A stretch of 64,000 bases of DNA from Minisyncoccota bacterium (GTDB taxonomy: Bacteria; Patescibacteriota; Minisyncoccia; Phycocordibacterales; UBA9973). A model generated the notes under the pieces. It was not told the origin of the DNA and did no database searches. It worked only from the letters and a program-made list of their open reading frames with translations. The stretch's first letter is position 1. Each line of letters starts with the position of its first letter. Location of the stretch: assembly GCA_041667145.1 (NCBI GenBank), contig JBAYFP010000002.1, positions 14,436 through 78,435 of the forward strand, in the 5' to 3' direction. Below, in pieces: positions 20,272-51,135 of the stretch. Both the position numbers and the translations under genes were made by a program.

Positions 20272-20419
20272 AAAAATGCCCTTTATATTATATTTAAAAA
20301 ATTAATTTTAATTGCGAGAACTATTACAACCTATATTGTATATAATACAATTGACTCTGTCAACTTTTTTCTGTCCTTTTATATCAACAAAATAAAGTCC
20401 ATCTGGGTTTGTTCACCTC

Positions 20420-20435
20420 TAGGCCTTGCCTAGCT
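20420..20435. repeat. REP-like GC-rich hairpin, left copy flanking the transposase (taggccttgcctagct)
   Basis: Exact reverse complement of the right copy at 21123-21138. Its internal stem is ctagg/cctag. It contains the transposase stop codon. Confidence 0.8.
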
Positions 20436-21096
20436 AAATTTCATTCTTATAGTTTAACCATTCAAAAATCTCACTTAAAAAATCTCTCCCTGTTGGGAAA
20501 TATTTCGGAAATGATTTTGTATTTAATATTTTATTTTGTATTCTTTGTATCCCTATATAATCTAAATAACTCGAGTAAAGATAATCATATAAATATCTTT
20601 CAGATTCTTTTCTGTTTTTAATCCCCTTTTCCTTCCAATCCTTTTGTATAAGTTTCATTGGATTCAAATGAATATAAGAAAACATATATTTAAGATATTT
20701 ATCTTTGTCTATATGCTGTGATTTAAATTTGCCTTCAAATAAGCTACCCGTTCTTTTATATTTTTTATTAAAATACATCGAATAAGAAGTACTCAATTTC
20801 TGCATAAAATTACTTATATTATTGTCTCCCGATTGTGTTATTAATAAATGAAAGTGATTAGACATTAAACAATACGCACCAATATAAACAATCGGTTCTT
20901 CTTGTTCAATCTCATATAAAGTTTGACCCTTATTTAAATTACTAACTTTCAAACTACCCGTTTGGTTACAAGCATATAAAAGACTTATAAAACGCAAATA
21001 GTCCTCTTCGTCAAGAAAGATTTTCTGCTTACTATTTCCTCTATTGTAAATGTGATAATACTCACCTGAGACTAAACTTACTTTTCGTATAGACAT
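20434..21096 (-). mobile_element. IS200-like / REP-associated tyrosine transposase (RAYT, COG1943-type HUH Y1 transposase)
   Basis: YHIYNRGNSKQKIF..DYLRF..LL, the AYCLMSNHFHLL HUH motif, and LSTSYSMYFNKKYKRTGSLFEGKFKSQHIDKDKYLKYMFSYIHLNP. The gene is flanked by perfectly inverted 16-nt GC-rich repeats. Confidence 0.8.
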
Positions 21097-21122
21097 AAAT
21101 ATATAATACCAAAATACTATTC

Positions 21123-21140
21123 AGCTAGGCAAGGCCTAGA
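21123..21140. repeat. REP-like GC-rich hairpin, right copy (agctaggcaaggcctaga)
   Basis: Inverted copy of 20420-20435. It overlaps the 3' end of the patatin-like gene. Confidence 0.8.
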
Positions 21141-22009
21141 CGGAGGTTTCACATCTTTTAAAAAAATCTTCGAGCTCTGTATGATTAATCGTATCTTCAT
21201 ATCCTTGATTTATTGTTTTTTTAAGCAAGTTTACTTTTAAACCTATTCTACCAATCGGTAATTCTTTCTTAGGTTGTATAATTACAACATTATTTCGTTT
21301 TTTATATTCAAGTATCTCTTTTCTATCTTTCTCATAATTTTTAGGCATATCCCAAATTGCTTTTTTAACAAGTTCAGACTCATTTCTTATCCATAGAAAT
21401 TCAAGTATCTTCCTTAAAAAGATATATTTAGGAAGCTCTTTTGCTGGTCTCGTTAATATCACTAGTAAATTTTTAGGTTTTAATTCTAATGTTTTTCTGA
21501 CACCAAAATTTTCTGTTACTGTCCCATCAACATACTCAATTATTTAATTTAACTCTTTTACCAAAAAAATACGGCACAGCACAAGCCGCTCTGATAATTT
21601 CATAAGGATCTTCCGATTCGTGGTTTGTAAAATAAATTCCCTTACAATCAGAATACCTTAAAAGAGGTATATAAAGTTCAGTTTTTGAAGATTTTAGAGA
21701 ATTTATATCAAGCGGAAATTTCTTTTTGAGGACTGTGTCAACTAAAAAATCTATGTCCATTATTGGACCTCTTAGAAAAAAATTTCTTATTTTTATAAAT
21801 TCCCCTGATTTTACCAACTCAATCCATATTTTTTCAATATAATCATATTGTTTCGTTATGAAATAGGCAAAAGTACTCCCTGCCCCAGAAGATCCAACAA
21901 TCAAATCTACTTCATCTAAAGAATATTTTTCTCTCAGTCCCTTTATAACTCCCACACTATAAGCTGATTTTAAACCACCGCCTTGGGCAGTTATACAAAT
22001 ATTTTTCAT
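21136..22009 (-). pseudogene. patatin-like phospholipase, disrupted by a frameshift around 21536-21546 (two ORFs: 22009-21536 and 21462-21136)
   Basis: The N-terminal ORF has GGGLKSAYSVGVIKGLREKY (the GGGxK/R oxyanion motif) and IVGSSGAGS (a degenerate GxSxG). The downstream ORF, extended upstream in another frame, begins IEYVDGTVTENFGV, which is the patatin Asp (DG) motif. The combined ~290 aa matches patatin length. Confidence 0.6.
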
Positions 22010-22040: not shown

Positions 22041-22760
22041 TTATCTACTAAATAATCTTTCAGCTAGGCAAGGTCTAGATGAATTTTTCCATTCCTCTAT
22101 CTTTTTATGATTCCCAGACAGTAATACTTTTGGAACTTTGTAATTTTTGTTTTTATATTTTAAAATTTCTGGACGAGTATAAACTTCGCTTGAAGATATT
22201 CTTTCTTCTTCTCGTGAATCGAAATTACCAAGTACACCTTCTATTTGACGAGAAATGCAGTCTACTAAAATCATGGCTGGGATTTCTCCACCAGTCAAAA
22301 CATAATCTCCTATTGATAATTTTTTGGTCTTTAATATTTTATCAACTCTTGCATCTATCCCCTCATATCTTCCACAAATCAAAATAATATCAGTATATTT
22401 TTTAGAAATTAATTTGGCATAAGTAGTTGTGAATTTTTCTGCACTAGGAATGAAATTAATTATTAAAATTTTTTTATTCCCCTCTTGAGGGGTGGCTCGC
22501 TTACGAGACGGGGTGGATATTTTTTTTACTACTGTTCTCACTGTTTCAAGCAGTGGCTCGGCTCTCATGACCATCCCCGGACCTCCACCATAGGGCTTAT
22601 CATCTACTGGTTTATAGTTAGTTTTATTTCCCTTAATAAAATCTCTGGGATTATAAAACTTCACAGAAATAAGCTTGTTTTTTATTGCCCGACCAATAAT
22701 AGACTCACTCAAATATGAATCAAATATGTCTGGGAAAATTGTAATTATATGAAAACGCAT
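22041..22760 (-). CDS. trmD: tRNA (guanine37-N1)-methyltransferase TrmD
   Basis: MRFHIITIFPDIF... and the SPOUT-knot region ILICGRYEGIDARV. The ORF track starts at 22781 with TTG; I take the ATG at 22758-22760. It contains a GC-rich insertion at 22474-22520. Confidence 0.85.
   Translation of the reverse strand: MRFHIITIFPDIFDSYLSESIIGRAIKNKLISVKFYNPRDFIKGNKTNYKPVDDKPYGGGPGMVMRAEPLLETVRTVVKKISTPSRKRATPQEGNKKILIINFIPSAEKFTTTYAKLISKKYTDIILICGRYEGIDARVDKILKTKKLSIGDYVLTGGEIPAMILVDCISRQIEGVLGNFDSREEERISSSEVYTRPEILKYKNKNYKVPKVLLSGNHKKIEEWKNSSRPCLAERLFSR
22062..22079. repeat. REP-like hairpin, third copy (agctaggcaaggtctaga, 1 mismatch)
   Basis: Same orientation as the copy at 21123. It lies inside the 3' end of the trmD ORF (encoding ...RPCLAE...). 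Confidence 0.75.
22474..22520. repeat. GC-rich hairpin element inside trmD (ttattcccctcttgaggggtg-N15-ggggtggatat); a paralogous copy lies in pheT
   Basis: Stem cccctc/gagggg plus the inner hairpin ctcg-ctta-cgag. It encodes STPSRKRATPQEGNKK in frame. It shares 22+11 identical nt with 37859-37901. Confidence 0.75.
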
Positions 22761-23662: not shown

Positions 23663-25609
23663 ATGAAGAAAAAAATAACTAACAAAGCAGAGGGCATAAT
23701 ATCCATCTCCTCAAAAGGTACGGGGTATGTTAAAGTCCTTTGTTTTGAAGAAGACCCAGAGATAGACTTTAAACACTTAAATACCGCACTTCATGGCGAT
23801 ACAGTCGAGATAATACTCCATCCAAAAGGTAAAAAACGACTTACCGGAGAAGTATTGAAAGTAATCTCACGAATAAAAGTCGGTTTTTCGGGGGTATTAG
23901 AAAAAGAAAATGGTTTTTATTTCTTAAAGCCAGATGACACAAAAATGTATACCGATATTTTAATACCAGAAAAATTACTAAATAGCGCAAAAGTTGGTCA
24001 AAAAGTTTATGTAAAAATAACATCATGGGAAGATTCAAAGAAAGCACCAGAGGGTGAAGTAATAAAAATTTTAGGACAACCTGGTGATAATAATACAGAA
24101 ATGCATGCTATAGCTATTGAGAAAGGCTTTGATAGCGAACTACCTAAAAAAGTGGAAGAAGAGGCTAAAAAAATAAAAAATCTAGGAATAAAAAACGAAG
24201 ATTTCTTGGGACGACGAGATTTTAGGAAAACTCTTACATTTACTATTGACCCTGAAGATGCAAAAGATTTTGATGATGCTATATCGTTTAGGATTCTTCC
24301 CCCTCTCCTTAATGAGGAGAGGGGGCTAGGGGGTGAGGTGTATGAAATAGGCATCCACATAGCCGACGTCACTCACTATGTAAAAGTAGGAAGTGAAATC
24401 GATCATGAAGCAAAGAATAGAGGAACTTCTGTATATTTAGTGGACAGAACGATACCCATGCTTCCAGAAACACTTTCTAATGATTTATGTTCCCTGCTCC
24501 CTCATAAAGATAGACTCACAATGAGTGCTGTATTTATCATAGACAAGAATGCACATGTAAAAAAAGAATGGCATGGACGCACAGTAATACATTCACAAAA
24601 AAGATTTACTTATGAAGAGGCAGAAGAAACTATAAAAAAAATCGACGCACCACTGCATAAAGAACTTTCTATTTTAAATAATTTAGCAAAAAAATTAACA
24701 AAAGAAAGATTTGCCAATGGTGCTATCTCTCTCGAACAAGAAGAAGTGAAGTTCGTCTTGGATAAAAATGGAGTACCAATAAAAGTAATAAAAAAGGTAC
24801 GTGGTGATTCAAATAAATTAATTGAAGAATTTATGCTTCTCGCAAATAAAAAAGTTGCAGAGACAATCTCAAAAGGCACTAAAAAGGAAGGTGGTGTATT
24901 TGTATATAGAATACACGATAACCCTAGTAAAGAGAAAATGACCGACCTTGCATTCTTTTTGAGAAGTCTAGGACATAAAATATCATTAGTAGACGGAGTA
25001 ATACCAACCAATGAAATAAATGCCCTTTTAAAAAGTTTAGAAGGTAAAAGTGAAGAAAATACAGTGAATAGAGCAGTAGTACGTTCTATGGCAAAAGCCA
25101 TTTATTCTACAAAAAATATCGGACATTATGGACTTGCTTTTCCATATTACGCTCATTTTACTTCCCCCATCAGGCGTTATCCTGACATAGTAGTTCACAG
25201 ACTTTTGAACGATTATTTAAAGGGTATAAAAGTAGGAAAGGAAAAATTGAATATTTACGAAGAAATCTCTTTAAAAGCATCAGAGAGAGAGAAATATGCT
25301 TCCGATGCCGAAAGAGCATCTATAAAATATAAACAAGTTGAATACATGTCTTCTCGTATTGGAAAAACATTCAAAGGAATCATAAGTGGAATAACAGAGT
25401 GGGGTATATATGTGGAAGAAATAGAGACAAAATGTGAAGGCCTCGTACGAGTGAGAGATATGGAAGATGATTTTTATATCTATAATGAAAAGAAGTTAGA
25501 ATTACTTGGACAGAAAAAGAAAAAGAGATATAGGTTAGGAGATAACGTAAAAATAAAAGTAAAAAGTGTTGATTTAAAAAGAAAAACAATTGATTACACA
25601 TTGGTATGA
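23663..25609 (+). CDS. rnr: ribonuclease R / RNase II-family exoribonuclease
   Basis: An RNB catalytic domain (DPEDAKDFDDAIS...HIADVTHYV) and a C-terminal S1 domain. I prefer the ATG at 23663 (the ORF track starts at 23630). It contains a GC-rich hairpin insertion at 24299-24340. Confidence 0.85.
   Translation: MKKKITNKAEGIISISSKGTGYVKVLCFEEDPEIDFKHLNTALHGDTVEIILHPKGKKRLTGEVLKVISRIKVGFSGVLEKENGFYFLKPDDTKMYTDILIPEKLLNSAKVGQKVYVKITSWEDSKKAPEGEVIKILGQPGDNNTEMHAIAIEKGFDSELPKKVEEEAKKIKNLGIKNEDFLGRRDFRKTLTFTIDPEDAKDFDDAISFRILPPLLNEERGLGGEVYEIGIHIADVTHYVKVGSEIDHEAKNRGTSVYLVDRTIPMLPETLSNDLCSLLPHKDRLTMSAVFIIDKNAHVKKEWHGRTVIHSQKRFTYEEAEETIKKIDAPLHKELSILNNLAKKLTKERFANGAISLEQEEVKFVLDKNGVPIKVIKKVRGDSNKLIEEFMLLANKKVAETISKGTKKEGGVFVYRIHDNPSKEKMTDLAFFLRSLGHKISLVDGVIPTNEINALLKSLEGKSEENTVNRAVVRSMAKAIYSTKNIGHYGLAFPYYAHFTSPIRRYPDIVVHRLLNDYLKGIKVGKEKLNIYEEISLKASEREKYASDAERASIKYKQVEYMSSRIGKTFKGIISGITEWGIYVEEIETKCEGLVRVRDMEDDFYIYNEKKLELLGQKKKKRYRLGDNVKIKVKSVDLKRKTIDYTLV
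24299..24340. repeat. GC-rich hairpin element inside rnr (cccctctcc-ttaatga-ggagagggg + gctagggggtgagg)
   Basis: A 9-bp perfect stem. It encodes the extra loop LPPLLNEERGLGGE between the DDA and HIADV motifs, where orthologs have ~10 fewer residues. Confidence 0.7.
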
Positions 25610-37569: not shown

Positions 37570-39441
37570 CTATCTTACTTGCCAATCATTTTTCTCCTTG
37601 ATTTTATTGGTTATTTTAGTCATAATTTCGTTTATTTCATCGTCAGTAAGAGTCCTTTCATAAGATTGGAAAACTAGCCTAAAAGCATACGAAGTCTTAC
37701 TATCTTTAGTGAAAGAATCAAAAAGATATGGCTCCTTAATTAAAAGTTCTGTACCATTTTCTATAAGTATCTTCTTCAATTCTTTCACATTCCCTCCTTC
37801 CGGCATCCAGACAGCAATATCACGAGAAATAAAAGGATAAATTGACCAAGGAAGAAATTTATTCCCCTCTTGAGGGGTGACGCCTGCGCCGGGGTGGATA
37901 TATTTTCCACCTCCCCCTAAAGGGTACTCCTCAAGAAGAGAATCTTTACAAAATTCGTTGAGTGTCATTTCTTTTATTTCTTTTTTATCTCCATAAGCGA
38001 CATGCATTTCTTCCCCACTTTTCTTGAACACAGTACCTATTTCAAAAATCTTTATTTCTTTCATTTCAAGAAGTGGTAAATTGATCTGATTTAATTTCAA
38101 GCTTTCTTTTAATCCATCAGTCAGATTTGTTCTTAAAAACTTTTTATCCGACGCAGAAGCCAATACTTCCACTTCCCCTTTATCTTTAAACGAGTAAGTC
38201 ATAACTTCACTATACCCGCTATTTAAAAGCTTACTACGTGTAAAAATAATTTCTGAAAATATTTCATTCATTTTTGTTTTAGTTTTTATTTCAGGCATTT
38301 TTTCTTTAAGCTTGTCATACCCTAAAATTCGAATCACTTCTTCAGTCAAATCATGAGGACCTGTTATATCAATTCTAAAAAAAGGAACTTCAATCTCAAA
38401 TTCGTCTCCTTTCTTTAAATATTTAAAATTTAATTTTTTCCATACATCTTCTATCTCTTTTTGAGAAAAATCAGAACCCAAATGTTTATTTATATAATTT
38501 ACAGAAACAAAAACCTTTTTTTGTTCAACTTTTTTTGGATAAATATCTATGATAGATTCTGCTTCCCCTCCAGCTAATTCAAAAACCAAATCAGTAATGG
38601 CATTCATAGCCATGGTGCAAAGTTCTGGGGTAATTTCATTTTCATATCTCTTCACAGCATCAGTTAAAATATTTATTTTCTTGGAAGTTTTTCTTGTAGA
38701 AGTTTTATCAAAATTTGCCACTTCTATAACTAGATTTTTTGTCTTATCGTCAACCTCAGCCTTTATTCCTCCTTTTATCCCCGCAATGGCTAAAGGAGTT
38801 TTTTCATCCGCAATTACCAAAATCGATTCATCTAAAATGATCTCTTTTTTATCAAGGGTAGTGAGTTTTTCTCCAACTTTTCCATTTCTTACAATTATTT
38901 TTGCACTTTCTAATTTATCTAAATCAAAACAATGAATCGGTTGACCCAAATCAAACATTACAAAATTGGCAGCATCTACAATATTATTTATTGATTTTTG
39001 TCCTATCGCTTCTAATTTTTCCCTTAGCCAATCTGGGCTTTTACTAATTTTTATATTTCTAACAATTCGGCCCATATAACGAAGACACTTATCTGACTGA
39101 ATTTCAATTTTTAAATCTGGGCCAAAATGGCTTTTTGAACGGTCTGGTTGAGCCTGTTCTTTTAAAGAATCCTGCACAGGCGACCCGAGGACCTGAAAAA
39201 AGCCATTTGGCGAGGATATCTTTAAATTAAAAATAGCAGAAATTTCTTTAGCTATCCCGAAATGAGAAAGGCAATCGTGTGCTCTATCTGGAAGAATTTT
39301 AATATCAAAAATAACGTCATCCCCAATCTTTACAATTTCTTCTACTTCAAAAGAGTGAAAAATAATACCCTCAGATAATTTCTCTGGTTCAGGTAATTTT
39401 TCTTTGAAATAATTTTGTAACCAATTATAACTAACTTTCAT
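37570..39441 (-). CDS. pheT: phenylalanyl-tRNA synthetase beta subunit (short form)
   Basis: B3/B4 and B5 domain similarity, adjacent to pheS. It is 623 aa. It contains GC-rich insertions at 37859-37901 and 39171-39204. Confidence 0.8.
   Translation of the reverse strand: MKVSYNWLQNYFKEKLPEPEKLSEGIIFHSFEVEEIVKIGDDVIFDIKILPDRAHDCLSHFGIAKEISAIFNLKISSPNGFFQVLGSPVQDSLKEQAQPDRSKSHFGPDLKIEIQSDKCLRYMGRIVRNIKISKSPDWLREKLEAIGQKSINNIVDAANFVMFDLGQPIHCFDLDKLESAKIIVRNGKVGEKLTTLDKKEIILDESILVIADEKTPLAIAGIKGGIKAEVDDKTKNLVIEVANFDKTSTRKTSKKINILTDAVKRYENEITPELCTMAMNAITDLVFELAGGEAESIIDIYPKKVEQKKVFVSVNYINKHLGSDFSQKEIEDVWKKLNFKYLKKGDEFEIEVPFFRIDITGPHDLTEEVIRILGYDKLKEKMPEIKTKTKMNEIFSEIIFTRSKLLNSGYSEVMTYSFKDKGEVEVLASASDKKFLRTNLTDGLKESLKLNQINLPLLEMKEIKIFEIGTVFKKSGEEMHVAYGDKKEIKEMTLNEFCKDSLLEEYPLGGGGKYIHPGAGVTPQEGNKFLPWSIYPFISRDIAVWMPEGGNVKELKKILIENGTELLIKEPYLFDSFTKDSKTSYAFRLVFQSYERTLTDDEINEIMTKITNKIKEKNDWQVR
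37859..37901. repeat. GC-rich hairpin element inside pheT (tttattcccctcttgaggggtg-N11-ggggtggatat)
   Basis: Same flanks as the trmD copy with a different-length core. It encodes YIHPGAGVTPQEGNK; part of it is read in a different frame than in trmD. Confidence 0.75.
39171..39204. repeat. GC-rich element inside pheT sharing ccgaggacctgaa with the smc element
   Basis: cctgcacaggcgacccgaggacctgaaaaaagcc; an island of ~65% GC inside an AT-rich gene. Confidence 0.6.
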
Positions 39442-44526: not shown

Positions 44527-47290
<2,764 letters not shown>

Positions 47291-49753: not shown

Positions 49754-50236
49754 CTAAAGACAATCATAATCAGTGCCACCAGAAAGTTTTGAAGCTGTCG
49801 TTTGTAAAGATCTTCCTGTGCTATCCACGCACCACATTTTGGGAGACGCAACCGTACTCCCACTCAAGGGTGCCTCCACCGCAAAAGCCGTAGCACTTTG
49901 GTTACAAGTTGCAGTTAATGCCGTACCAGTAGCATCAGTAGAGAAACCCACTAACCCTGAAGCCTTAGCAGCAGCTTGGACTTGTAAACCAATCCCCGAA
50001 ACACCAAGAGTACCACTAGTACAAACACTGGTATAAGTATTTGGAATAGAAGTATTCATATTATAAAAAATTTCTGCCTGCTTCATGGCGTTATTTAAAT
50101 TTGATTTCACTGCTGCATCAACACCCTTCTTCCTAGCATCACTTAAGGACGCCAAGACGACTGAAGCTAAGATACCAATAATAGCGACAACAACTAACAA
50201 TTCGATTAATGTAAAACCTTTTTTAAAATTCTTCAT
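49754..50236 (-). CDS. pilA: type IV major pilin (PilA-like), paralog 1
   Basis: MKNFKKG|FTLIELLVVVAIIGILASVVLASL. The C-terminal Cys residues are consistent with a disulfide loop. Confidence 0.85.
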   Translation of the reverse strand: MKNFKKGFTLIELLVVVAIIGILASVVLASLSDARKKGVDAAVKSNLNNAMKQAEIFYNMNTSIPNTYTSVCTSGTLGVSGIGLQVQAAAKASGLVGFSTDATGTALTATCNQSATAFAVEAPLSGSTVASPKMWCVDSTGRSLQTTASKLSGGTDYDCL

Positions 50237-50289
50237 AATTTTATTTAAATTAATACTTAATAACTTCTTTTATTATATCATATCCACAC

Positions 50290-50349: not shown

Positions 50350-50910
50350 CTATGAAGTTGGTGTACCTGAACAAGTTAATCCCACAGTTGTAGAAGGTGC
50401 TGCTGGATTTGCTGTACAGCCATGAGACGTACATGCCGTAATTTGTGCTGCCGTGGTAGAACTTCCTCCTGTAGAATATGAAGTACATGCTGCTAAACTA
50501 GAAGCCGTACAACCTGTAGCAGTACTTAGTGCTACTGTAGTAGTCATTGCAATTCCAGTACTATCTACACAATAGTAATTTGCAGAATTCGTTTTTAATT
50601 GTCCTGACATCGCCCATGCACCTGCAATGGAATTACAATCAACAACTGCAGAACCAGCATTGGTTGCTGCTGATTTCATATTTGCTATACCCCCTGTAGC
50701 CGTACAAACATTAAGATATGATTGACTATTACCATCATAGAAAAGTTCTGCTTGTGCACGAGCACTTGTTATATTTGCCTTAATAGCTGCATCTGCGCCC
50801 TTCATTCTAGCAGAGTTCAACGATGCCAAAACGACTGAAGCCAAAATACCAATAATAGCGACAACAACTAATAATTCAATCAATGTAAAACCTTTTTTAA
50901 AATTCTTCAT
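50350..50910 (-). CDS. pilA: type IV major pilin (PilA-like), paralog 2
   Basis: The first ~31 aa are identical to paralog 1 (~95 nt of near-identical DNA). The C-terminal region is Thr/Ser/Cys-rich and variable. Confidence 0.85.
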   Translation of the reverse strand: MKNFKKGFTLIELLVVVAIIGILASVVLASLNSARMKGADAAIKANITSARAQAELFYDGNSQSYLNVCTATGGIANMKSAATNAGSAVVDCNSIAGAWAMSGQLKTNSANYYCVDSTGIAMTTTVALSTATGCTASSLAACTSYSTGGSSTTAAQITACTSHGCTANPAAPSTTVGLTCSGTPTS

Positions 50911-51135
50911 AATTTTTCGTTTCGTTTATAACGAAACAACTAATAAATATTACCTAATAATTTTTACCGCTCTTTGGCGGAAATTTCGACTATTTTTTAA
51001 TACATATATTATAACTTTTACAACTATAAAAAGACAACAAGGTTATCCACATTCTAAAATACAACCCCCTTTGTCCCCCTTATCAGGGGGAATTTTTTCC
51101 TCCCCTGACAAGGGGAGGTCAGAAGGGGTTTTTCT

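Follow-up and report, generated by a model that had tools for sequence, protein, structure and literature searches.

The trmD and pheT genes of a Minisyncoccota bacterium, located on a 64,000-nucleotide stretch of contig JBAYFP010000002.1 (hereafter the window; G+C content 34%), contain copies of one short, GC-rich double-hairpin DNA element. The element belongs to a repeat family that is spread across phyla, occupies sites that are empty in relatives, carries a hairpin that covaries and, as a doublet within genes, is confined to frame-preserving length classes. The trmD and pheT sequences are probably orphan copies of a hairpin module that elsewhere brackets cassettes with a DUF559 gene, kept in frame in tolerant loops. 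The TrmD protein of the window is identical to protein P0001 of a Candidatus Paceibacterota metagenome-assembled genome (MAG).

A preliminary description of the window had reported a 22-nt identity between trmD and pheT and a second shared stretch of 11 nt, on either side of a variable palindromic core. All three were recovered: (i) the 22-mer TTTATTCCCCTCTTGAGGGGTG is present at 22473-22494 and 37858-37879; (ii) the 11-mer GGGGTGGATAT at 22510-22520 and 37891-37901; and (iii) the cores are 15 nt in trmD (GCTCGCTTACGAGAC) and 11 nt in pheT (ACGCCTGCGCC), each of which can fold as a small hairpin. The trmD repeat, said to begin at 22474, starts one base earlier at 22473, the rest of its description being accurate; the pheT element is the repeat that was proposed, but it is longer than described, with a second, inverted and diverged unit at 37906-37943. 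Both genes lie on the minus strand and read the reverse complement of the repeat, as ..KKISTPSRKRATPQEGNKK.. in TrmD and ..KYIHPGAGVTPQEGNKF.. in PheT (the PheT peptide across the repeat is LEEYPLGGGGKYIHPGAGVTPQEGNK). The claimed difference in frame is present as well: the TPQEGN frame is common to both genes 3' of the core, and 5' of the core the reading is shifted by one (ISTP in trmD, YIHP in pheT) because the core lengths differ by 4 nt. The 14-mer CCCCTCTTGAGGGG occurs exactly at only these two sites of the window. With up to two mismatches it gives 4 matches versus 0.12 expected from shuffled sequences (0 of 100 shuffles reach 4); since the 14-mer is near-palindromic, these are the two sites counted on both strands. 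The 11-mer by itself is weakly significant (2 matches versus 0.49 expected in the window). The hairpin feature of trmD and pheT is thus a real, non-random DNA element.

The complete unit is about 42 nt long and has the form ATT-CCCCTCTTGAGGGG-TG-(variable hairpin)-GGGGTGG-A, in which CCCCTC-TT-GAGGGG makes up hairpin 1. A covariance model (R1), built from 28 related units and then run on the window, finds three significant units, one in trmD and two in pheT:

22476..22517, plus strand: solo unit in trmD, ATT-CCCCTCTTGAGGGG-TG-GCTCGCTTACGAGAC-GGGGTGG-A (58.3 bits, E 2.8e-18; empty-site orthologues)
22479..22492, plus strand: hairpin 1 of the trmD unit, CCCCTC-TT-GAGGGG
22495..22509, plus strand: variable hairpin (hairpin 2, hp2) of the trmD unit, stem-loop CTCG-CTTA-CGAG (covariation across the family)
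22510..22516, plus strand: inner conserved box GGGGTGG of the trmD unit
22041..22760, minus strand: trmD host gene, 239-aa protein with the insert at residues S82-N95 (alignment to solved TrmD structures; model)
37861..37898, plus strand: unit A of the pheT doublet, ATT-CCCCTCTTGAGGGG-TG-ACGCCTGCGCC-GGGGTGG-A (45.9 bits, E 8.2e-14)
37906..37943, minus strand: second unit (B) of the pheT doublet, diverged and in inverted orientation, ATTCTCTTCTTGAGGAGT-ACCCTTTAGGGG-GAGGTGGA (26.6 bits, E 7.5e-7)
37861..37943, both strands: pheT doublet of 83 nt resembling a miniature transposable element with inverted repeats (MITE), two facing units with a 7-nt AT loop between them (same architecture in 22 other loci)
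37570..39441, minus strand: pheT host gene, with the doublet in the linker between ..MTLNEFCK.. and ..FLPWSIYPFISRD..

The trmD gene reads the reverse complement of its unit as STPSRKRATPQEGN, and unit B of pheT encodes LEEYPLGGGG. The outer inverted ends of the pheT doublet are ATTC(C/T)C(C/T)TCTTGAGG(G/A)GT, and those of the 22 further doublets are ATTC(C/T)CCTCTTGAGG(G/A)GT.

The insertion is seen in TrmD, for which 120 close homologues (73-100% identity) were compared. About 35 of them have the insert, as KKI-STPSRKRATPQEGN-KK; many have an empty site (KKIK-SKKVLIINF), and others have unrelated repeat-derived peptides in the same loop. The DNA of the filled site reads aaaaaaaATA/TCCACC..GGGGAAT/AAAAAAAtt and that of empty sites aaaaaaATAAAAAGCAAAAAG. 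TPQEGN is not ancestral, because close relatives (73-92% identical) show an empty or differently filled site. In genomes with 82% identity between their trmD genes, the copy itself matches at 38/42 positions. No solved TrmD structure aligns across the insert, which falls in a gap in each case. An AlphaFold model of middling quality (mean predicted local distance difference test score, pLDDT, of 68) places it between a helix (residues 67-82) and a strand (98-109), with pLDDT below 50 at residues 86-94, as a low-confidence loop joining the two. Several other repeat products occupy this loop in relatives, two of which were identified. A heptamer tract, (ATTACGA)n, read as TNYELRIK, fills it in 8 relatives (L123 and seven others). 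A second GC palindrome family, CCTGCCCGCAATGCTTCGCATAGCGATGCAGGCGGG, is present in frame in ligA of the window (44905-44940), and an identical 36-mer fills the trmD loop of L124 at the same nucleotide position as the unit.

The PheT linker, from MTLxEFCK to FKMWSLFPF, is hypervariable among relatives, being either nearly empty or filled with peptides from at least five further repeat-derived families. A third palindromic insert type occurs elsewhere in pheT, at 39118-39201 (residues ~81-108; AATGGCTTTTTTCAGGTC...GACCGTTCAAAAAGCCATT, peptide FFQVLGSPVQDSLKEQAQPDRSKSHFG), and peptides related to it (DAFAQVLGSP..PDHSQKHTG) fill the C-terminal PheT linker of many relatives. The PheT of some relatives is much shorter, 394 aa with the usual N-terminus versus 623 aa in the window. 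Short PheT matches on long contigs had raised the possibility of a split pheT, which was rejected: L127 has a naturally short PheT, and L128 has a frameshift unrelated to the element.

The preliminary description had favoured a DNA element over protein homology, and had named beforehand two outcomes that would speak for the latter: similarity limited to the two loci and explained by gene conversion, and a TPQEGNK peptide ancestral in both protein families. Neither was observed. Exact boxes are present in at least 119 stretches of public genomes (see below), and TPQEGNK is not ancestral, with empty sites in TrmD relatives and little or no insert in some PheT relatives. Homology or gene conversion of the TPQEGNK motif between TrmD and PheT would account for the TPQEGN common to both proteins and for the insert being kept in about 35 TrmD homologues. 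However, the shared DNA reaches into the part that is read in different frames by the two genes, the same DNA gives PLKRG, HPSRG, PLEG and PLLRG elsewhere and also occurs in non-coding DNA, and sites are empty in TrmD orthologues. The frame data and the empty sites refute this explanation, and we dismiss it.

The distribution of the family was assessed with the exact pattern CCCCTCTTGAGGGGTG-N6-26-GGGGTGG in a collection of species-representative genomes (596 Gb). The pattern was found in at least 119 stretches with at least 141 copies, from more than 10 phyla, where chance would give ∼0.2 (estimated from 596 Gb and 23 fixed bases). Among the matches listed, the hosts in the Candidate Phyla Radiation (CPR, that is Patescibacteria) are Nomurabacteria, Paceibacteria, Saccharibacteria and Gracilibacteria. 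The Bacteroidota include cultured isolates of Pedobacter, Flavobacterium and Parasediminibacterium, and complete chromosomes are found among the Kapabacteria and Ignavibacteria; further hosts are a termite-gut Bacillota MAG, a Thermotogaceae MAG, Brocadia, Limisphaerales, Cloacimonadota, Nitrospirota and others. No Rickettsia genome is among the 119 matches listed. The outer flank ATT is present in 126-140 of the 141 copies, conservation stops at position -4, and an A follows the inner box in 116/141. Boxes that are identical from Bacteroidota to Thermotogaceae are unusual for a short repeat, and this distribution points to horizontal spread. A phage or plasmid vector was rejected on the near-absence of the unit from viral contigs (1 match among 2.9 million) and plasmids (absent from the 72,556 searched, with a single partial chance match). 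A full-text literature search for the 14-mer or its peptides found no description of the repeat. One Kapabacteria chromosome (L024, OY761611.1) has three units in the same orientation, spaced 2126 and 2120 nt apart and with identical flanks; this is a tandem array of ∼2.1-kb segments with a unit at the end of each.

The variable hairpin is maintained by compensatory change. In 107 distinct cores the mean perfect stem of hairpin 2 is 3.9 bp, versus 2.4 bp in shuffles, and stems of at least 5 bp are present in 39 of these, versus about 1 expected. In the 28 units with 16-nt cores, five of the six pairs change on both sides yet remain paired; the covariation score is 0.282, versus 0.078 for shuffles (0/500 reach it) and at most 0.072 with the partners slid. 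Hairpin 1 is invariant in the 28-unit set by ascertainment; elsewhere its variants compensate too (CCCCTCC/GGAGGGG, CTCCTC/GAGGAG and CCCCTTCTA/TAGAAGGGG). The folding energy of the two window sites is unremarkable (z-scores of -0.5 to -1.8), and the argument for structure therefore rests on covariation and not on energy.

Such maintenance of hairpin 2, together with boxes that are identical across phyla, might be expected of a structured signal that benefits the host, such as a terminator, an mRNA-stabilising hairpin or a protein-binding site, which would lie in genes incidentally. In the Bacillota genome WRLT01, AAAAAATT stands upstream of every copy, so that the opposite strand presents a GC hairpin followed by AATTTTTT, a terminator-like arrangement. 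Palindromic transposon ends show similar covariation, however, and no relevant Rfam match was obtained in the window (gathering score) or in six unit-rich loci (E ≤1). The trmD site is filled, empty or otherwise filled in close relatives, so no function is tied to the position; copies occur in both orientations and in coding as well as non-coding DNA, and a terminator on the sense strand within an essential gene would be harmful. We consider a host-beneficial signal quite unlikely.

Both window copies and, overall, about 35 of 143 lie within open frames of 180 aa or more, chiefly in CPR genomes. The module is stop-free in five of its six frames, the third forward frame having a TGA, and one and the same DNA is read in several frames across genes (TPQEGN, PLKRG, HPSRG, PLEG and PLLRG). 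The reverse orientation is the commonest among coding copies (TPQEGN, then PLKRG), with PLEG or PLLRG in the forward frames. Doublets within open reading frames (ORFs) all read LEEYP(L/K)G...TPQEGN and measure 80, 83 (four cases), 86 (three cases), 92 or 98 nt from ATT to AAT, which is 2 mod 3 throughout, whereas doublets outside long ORFs fall into all three length classes. Orthologous copies differ by multiples of 3, core and loop lengths offsetting each other. The single length class argues for selection on the reading frame, and hence for translation. We infer that the inserts are translated and not removed, the orphan copies in essential genes apparently being read as extra surface-loop peptides.

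The alternative, in which the mRNA loses the element or the ribosome skips it, draws on the resemblance of GC-rich hairpin inserts in an AT-rich genome to the GC clusters and 'byp' elements of yeast mitochondria; none of the present results speaks for removal. Against this, all copies in long ORFs are open in the frame of the host gene, and neither the 2 mod 3 lengths of the in-ORF doublets nor the multiples of 3 between orthologous copies would exist if the sequence were skipped. Removal or bypass is therefore very improbable.

DUF559 is the sole ORF family that recurs beside the units across phyla, as judged by clustering of the ORFs in the 119 loci listed. The assignment is by Pfam PF04480 (E 1e-18 to 1e-32), and the closest solved structure is the endonuclease-like protein 3hrl. 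The units bracket the DUF559 gene in inverted orientation, forming cassettes of ∼430-580 bp with no other gene. In a typical cassette of 437 bp (L183), aaATT-CCCCTCCTTGGAGGGG-TG-hp2-GGGGTGG-TTT-ATG leads into the DUF559 ORF, which is followed by CCACCCC-hp2'-CACCCCTCCAAGGAGGGG-AAT; the right repeat encodes the last codons of the ORF (HPALRAPLQGGE and the stop). An independent test set consisted of 80 metagenome loci picked by DUF559 protein similarity alone and searched with a 16-mer, allowing at most 2 errors. Upstream, 20 loci had a forward unit at a distance of at most 400 nt; downstream, 18 had a reverse unit within the same distance, and 11 loci had both. The outer flanks held only 4 matches. 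A partial recount of this test gave 1.48 versus 0.056 matches per kb. Of 17 sampled loci that scored as negative, about 10 carry inverted repeats built in the same way, with hairpin 1 in a variant form; one such is a perfect repeat of 40 nt, ATTCCCCTCCTTTGGAGGGGTGCCCAACGGGCGGGGTGGT. These data establish the physical linkage of the module to DUF559 genes. In one locus (L028, 1-560) a 21-nt direct repeat, CCAAGTTTTTGGTGTTGGAGT, lies just outside both units of a DUF559 cassette; it is the only such case seen.

The linkage extends to the lineage of the window. Where a source is named for the 120 closest DUF559 homologues, it is Nomurabacteria/Paceibacterota. The unit-encoded peptide stands at the start of 99 of them (MPKKN-STPSRLKSSHPSRGE-FWNPKS..), and 85 end in ..KFPS, with a TGA stop located in the loop of a forward unit. 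In both loci examined at the DNA level (L209, L210) this stop is followed by the unit-B partner, and the stem of the left unit of the L210 cassette matches that of the trmD copy. Cassettes also occur within genes: the entire DUF559 cassette is in frame with its host in a type III mod gene (L109) and in hsdS (L112, L129 and L130), and these restriction-modification genes are continuous predicted ORFs of 430-610 aa. The insertion site in hsdS is identical in the three loci, between FKEWFVDFRFP and GPIPKGWR; most cassettes, however, are intergenic and in varied contexts.

The following scheme would account for these observations. In the complete form, inverted modules would surround a 430-580 bp cassette with a single DUF559 endonuclease gene (Vsr-like, PD-(D/E)XK fold). 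The nuclease would act on the modules and drive their copying, by nicking or cutting, after which host repair or replication would take over; this role of DUF559 we infer. Once the gene is lost, an inverted, MITE-like doublet (the pheT case) or a lone module (the trmD case) would remain. Copies may land or survive in AT-rich stretches that code for tolerant surface loops of housekeeping proteins, where only frame-preserving lengths would persist and read-through would add 14-28 hydrophilic residues rich in Pro, Gly, Ser and Thr. In essential genes, their lack of stops and their frame-preserving length would account for their retention in A-rich stretches that code for loops. That the trmD and pheT sequences are orphan copies of the DUF559-cassette module is, as stated above, the probable explanation. 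More tentatively, and with the balance of evidence slightly short of favouring it, the module and the DUF559 gene may represent an undescribed class of selfish elements across phyla, in which a Vsr-fold nuclease mobilises 42-nt double-hairpin modules without target-site duplication.

Several observations weigh against this scheme. The trmD copy is old and vertically inherited, as seen from the ∼35 homologues that share it and from the 38/42 identity given above; there is no DUF559 gene within the 64-kb window. Target-site duplications, which the preliminary description had suggested looking for, were not detectable at doublet or cassette borders: in the 23 doublets and 9 cassettes compared, the sequence beyond ATT..AAT shows no direct repeat that is consistent, and no excision footprint was found. 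In trmD, empty and filled sites both lie within an A-run, which would mask a duplication there. Two opposite arrangements exist, with the ATT ends outermost in non-CPR cassettes and the GGGGTGG ends outermost in CPR cassettes. The apparent conservation of the boxes is inflated by the exact-match search, variants of hairpin 1 being common, and the evidence for translation consists of open frames and length classes. Finally, we know of no biochemical activity of DUF559 on such hairpins, and the association would also be expected if DUF559 were cargo, or a gene to which repeats are drawn, rather than a mobilising enzyme.

If the scheme holds, translatable modules would let cassettes and their gene-less derivatives colonise coding DNA, including essential and restriction-modification genes of CPR bacteria. 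The 42-nt module would then suggest a function for DUF559, a widespread orphan domain found in very many genomes, as a nuclease that services hairpin-ended mini-elements, and it would explain the source of the PLEGW/PLLRGG/TPQEGN/HPSRGE peptides in predicted proteins. Essential proteins of CPR/Patescibacteria appear to have been remodelled repeatedly at the same tolerant loops by several tiny translated repeat families, and such loops affect annotation, alignment, phylogeny and structure prediction in these organisms. The unit motif offers an easy marker for spurious ORFs and insert-bearing genes.

Three further sites in the window resemble the unit and score weakly with the covariance model:

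24293..24340, plus strand: probable variant solo unit in the RNase R (rnr) gene, ATTCTT-CCCCCTCTCCT-TAAT-GAGGAGAGGGGG-CTA-GGGGGTGAGGTG (E 2.6)
46187..46279: probable diverged doublet of like design in ligA, TCTCCTCCTTGTTGAGGAGG..GAGGTGG-loop-CCACC..CCCCCTCCTTATCAAGGCGGGGGGAT (right half only, E 0.32)
51061..51128, intergenic: spacer pair of C-arm/G-arm hairpins of related design, TCCCCCTTATCAGGGGGA and CCTCCCCTGACAAGGGGAGG-TCAGAAGGGG (E 1.9)

The RNase R and ligA assignments are probable and rest in part on relatives. The peptide of the RNase R variant is PPLLNEERGLGGEV, and the RNase R of L070 has an exact unit at the equivalent position (DFDDAISFRVIN-SPLEGWPKDGVE); the peptides of the ligA doublet recur in the PheT linker of relative P0239. 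Hairpins resembling the pair at 51061-51128 flank DUF559 ORFs in L040 and L047. A separate 148-nt repeat (50095-50242 and 50769-50916, 84% identical) covers the 5' ends of a neighbouring pair of pilin-like genes that have the N-terminus MKNFKKGFTLIELLVVVAIIGILASVVLASL in common and are ordinary paralogues in a type IV pilus/pseudopilin cluster.

A different mobiliser might be sought next to trmD itself. An ORF ∼1 kb away (20434-21096, minus strand) encodes a Y1_Tnp protein (PF01797, E 1.4e-9) with a weak match to the repetitive extragenic palindrome (REP)-associated tyrosine transposases (RAYTs; 47 bits versus a cut-off of 80), and it is syntenic beside trmD in relatives (directly after trmD in L125). 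Units like REPs and REPINs could have been moved as single-stranded DNA by this RAYT/IS200-like enzyme. Like those elements, they are short, GC-rich and palindromic and can be found in inverted pairs, and the loops of hairpin 2 are mostly GAA, GTA or GCA triloops (47/107) or their complements. These triloops are typical of very stable DNA hairpins. HUH enzymes are moreover expected to leave no target-site duplication, and none is seen here. However, the inverted hairpin on either side of the Y1_Tnp gene is not the CCCCTCTTGAGGGG unit but a different one of its own, AGCTAGGCAAGGCCTAG (20419-20435 and 21123-21139, and likewise in L125), and the gene therefore looks like a separate small system rather than an evident mobiliser of the unit. 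A strong Y1_Tnp homologue is present in 1 of the 119 unit-bearing loci listed, the unit being tightly linked to another gene, DUF559, and the tag by which most REP superfamilies are defined (GTAG or CGTC; PMC3733652) is missing from the units. Mobilisation by the Y1 transposase is therefore unlikely.

The AGCTAGGCAAGGCCTAG hairpin has a third copy at 22062-22078, at the 3' end of trmD, through which the trmD ORF reads. Between two of the copies lie a patatin-like fragment (21536-22009) and a DUF6363 ORF (21136-21462), both absent from L125, and a 44-nt repeat (21107-21150 and 22046-22089, 75% identical) surrounds them. The segment looks as if it was inserted or rearranged at the hairpin.

Four known systems invite comparison. 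Rickettsia palindromic elements (RPEs) are likewise small palindromes that lie in frame in unrelated housekeeping genes of an AT-rich, reduced genome (PMC10969869; PMC1779305); in-frame insertion was found here in the unrelated ORFs of trmD, pheT, RNase R, ligA and many genes of other CPR genomes. Read-through into additional peptides is a feature of RPEs, which are believed to occupy positions that the protein fold can accommodate; the present element would be translated in the same manner. In contrast, RPEs are ∼100-150 bp long, in families described only in Rickettsia, whereas the unit is ∼42 nt and the doublets 83-98 nt. The unit is also set apart from the RPE descriptions by being GC-rich, modular and linked to a nuclease, with an inner hairpin of free sequence and a range of more than 10 phyla. 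To our knowledge, no autonomous partner of RPEs is known.

The REP/REPIN-RAYT system has GC-rich hairpins of 20-45 nt, single or as inverted doublets, in many copies and without target-site duplication, as is the case here, and one associated gene flanked by hairpins (PMC3116915, PMC3337134, PMC3733652). REPs, however, are extragenic, tagged with GTAG/CGTC and lineage-specific, with a Y1 HUH transposase as partner; the unit has ATT and GGGGTGG as its tag, copies within genes and, as partner, a DUF559 nuclease of the PD-(D/E)XK fold. The unit thus lacks the defining tag, the extragenic position and the flanking of a RAYT gene. A full-text literature search found no link of REPIN/RAYT to CPR.

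Bacterial MITEs such as the Coxiella QMITE and intragenic ERIC resemble the pheT copy in their inverted ends, non-coding nature and in-frame fusion (PMC10969869; PMC5896051), and the ends of the pheT copy match those of a larger gene-bearing element, the DUF559 cassette. Units and doublets (42-98 nt) are small, non-coding and multi-copy; the pheT doublet has inverted ends, and the trmD copy is a single end. Classical MITEs, in contrast, derive from insertion sequences with a DDE transposase and have target-site duplications; no such duplications are seen here, and no known transposase is encoded by the presumed autonomous element.

Literature on DUF559 was searched as well. Among genes with inverted repeats on both sides, 'DUF559 domain-containing protein' is over-represented (PMC9881135); the literature mentioning DUF559 yielded no description of such a hairpin-bracketed cassette. 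The last comparison, and the nearest precedent for the enzyme, is with the Vsr-like homing endonuclease genes (the I-Bth0305I family, 'fractured genes'). We know of no demonstrated homing activity of DUF559 itself. Vsr-like nucleases are known as free-standing homing endonucleases that lie within protein-coding genes and have hairpins upstream (PMC2677866; PMC3239194), and VSR, DUF559 and that homing endonuclease have been placed in one clade (PMC3424549). The likeness lies in a small Vsr-fold nuclease gene within conserved protein genes, in hairpins adjoining the ORF, and in the DUF559 cassette at one hsdS site in three loci (L112, L129, L130). Whereas Vsr-like homing endonuclease genes interrupt their host gene or are housed in an intron or intein, the DUF559 cassette can be in frame with its host, carries inverted hairpin modules and leaves gene-less derivatives.

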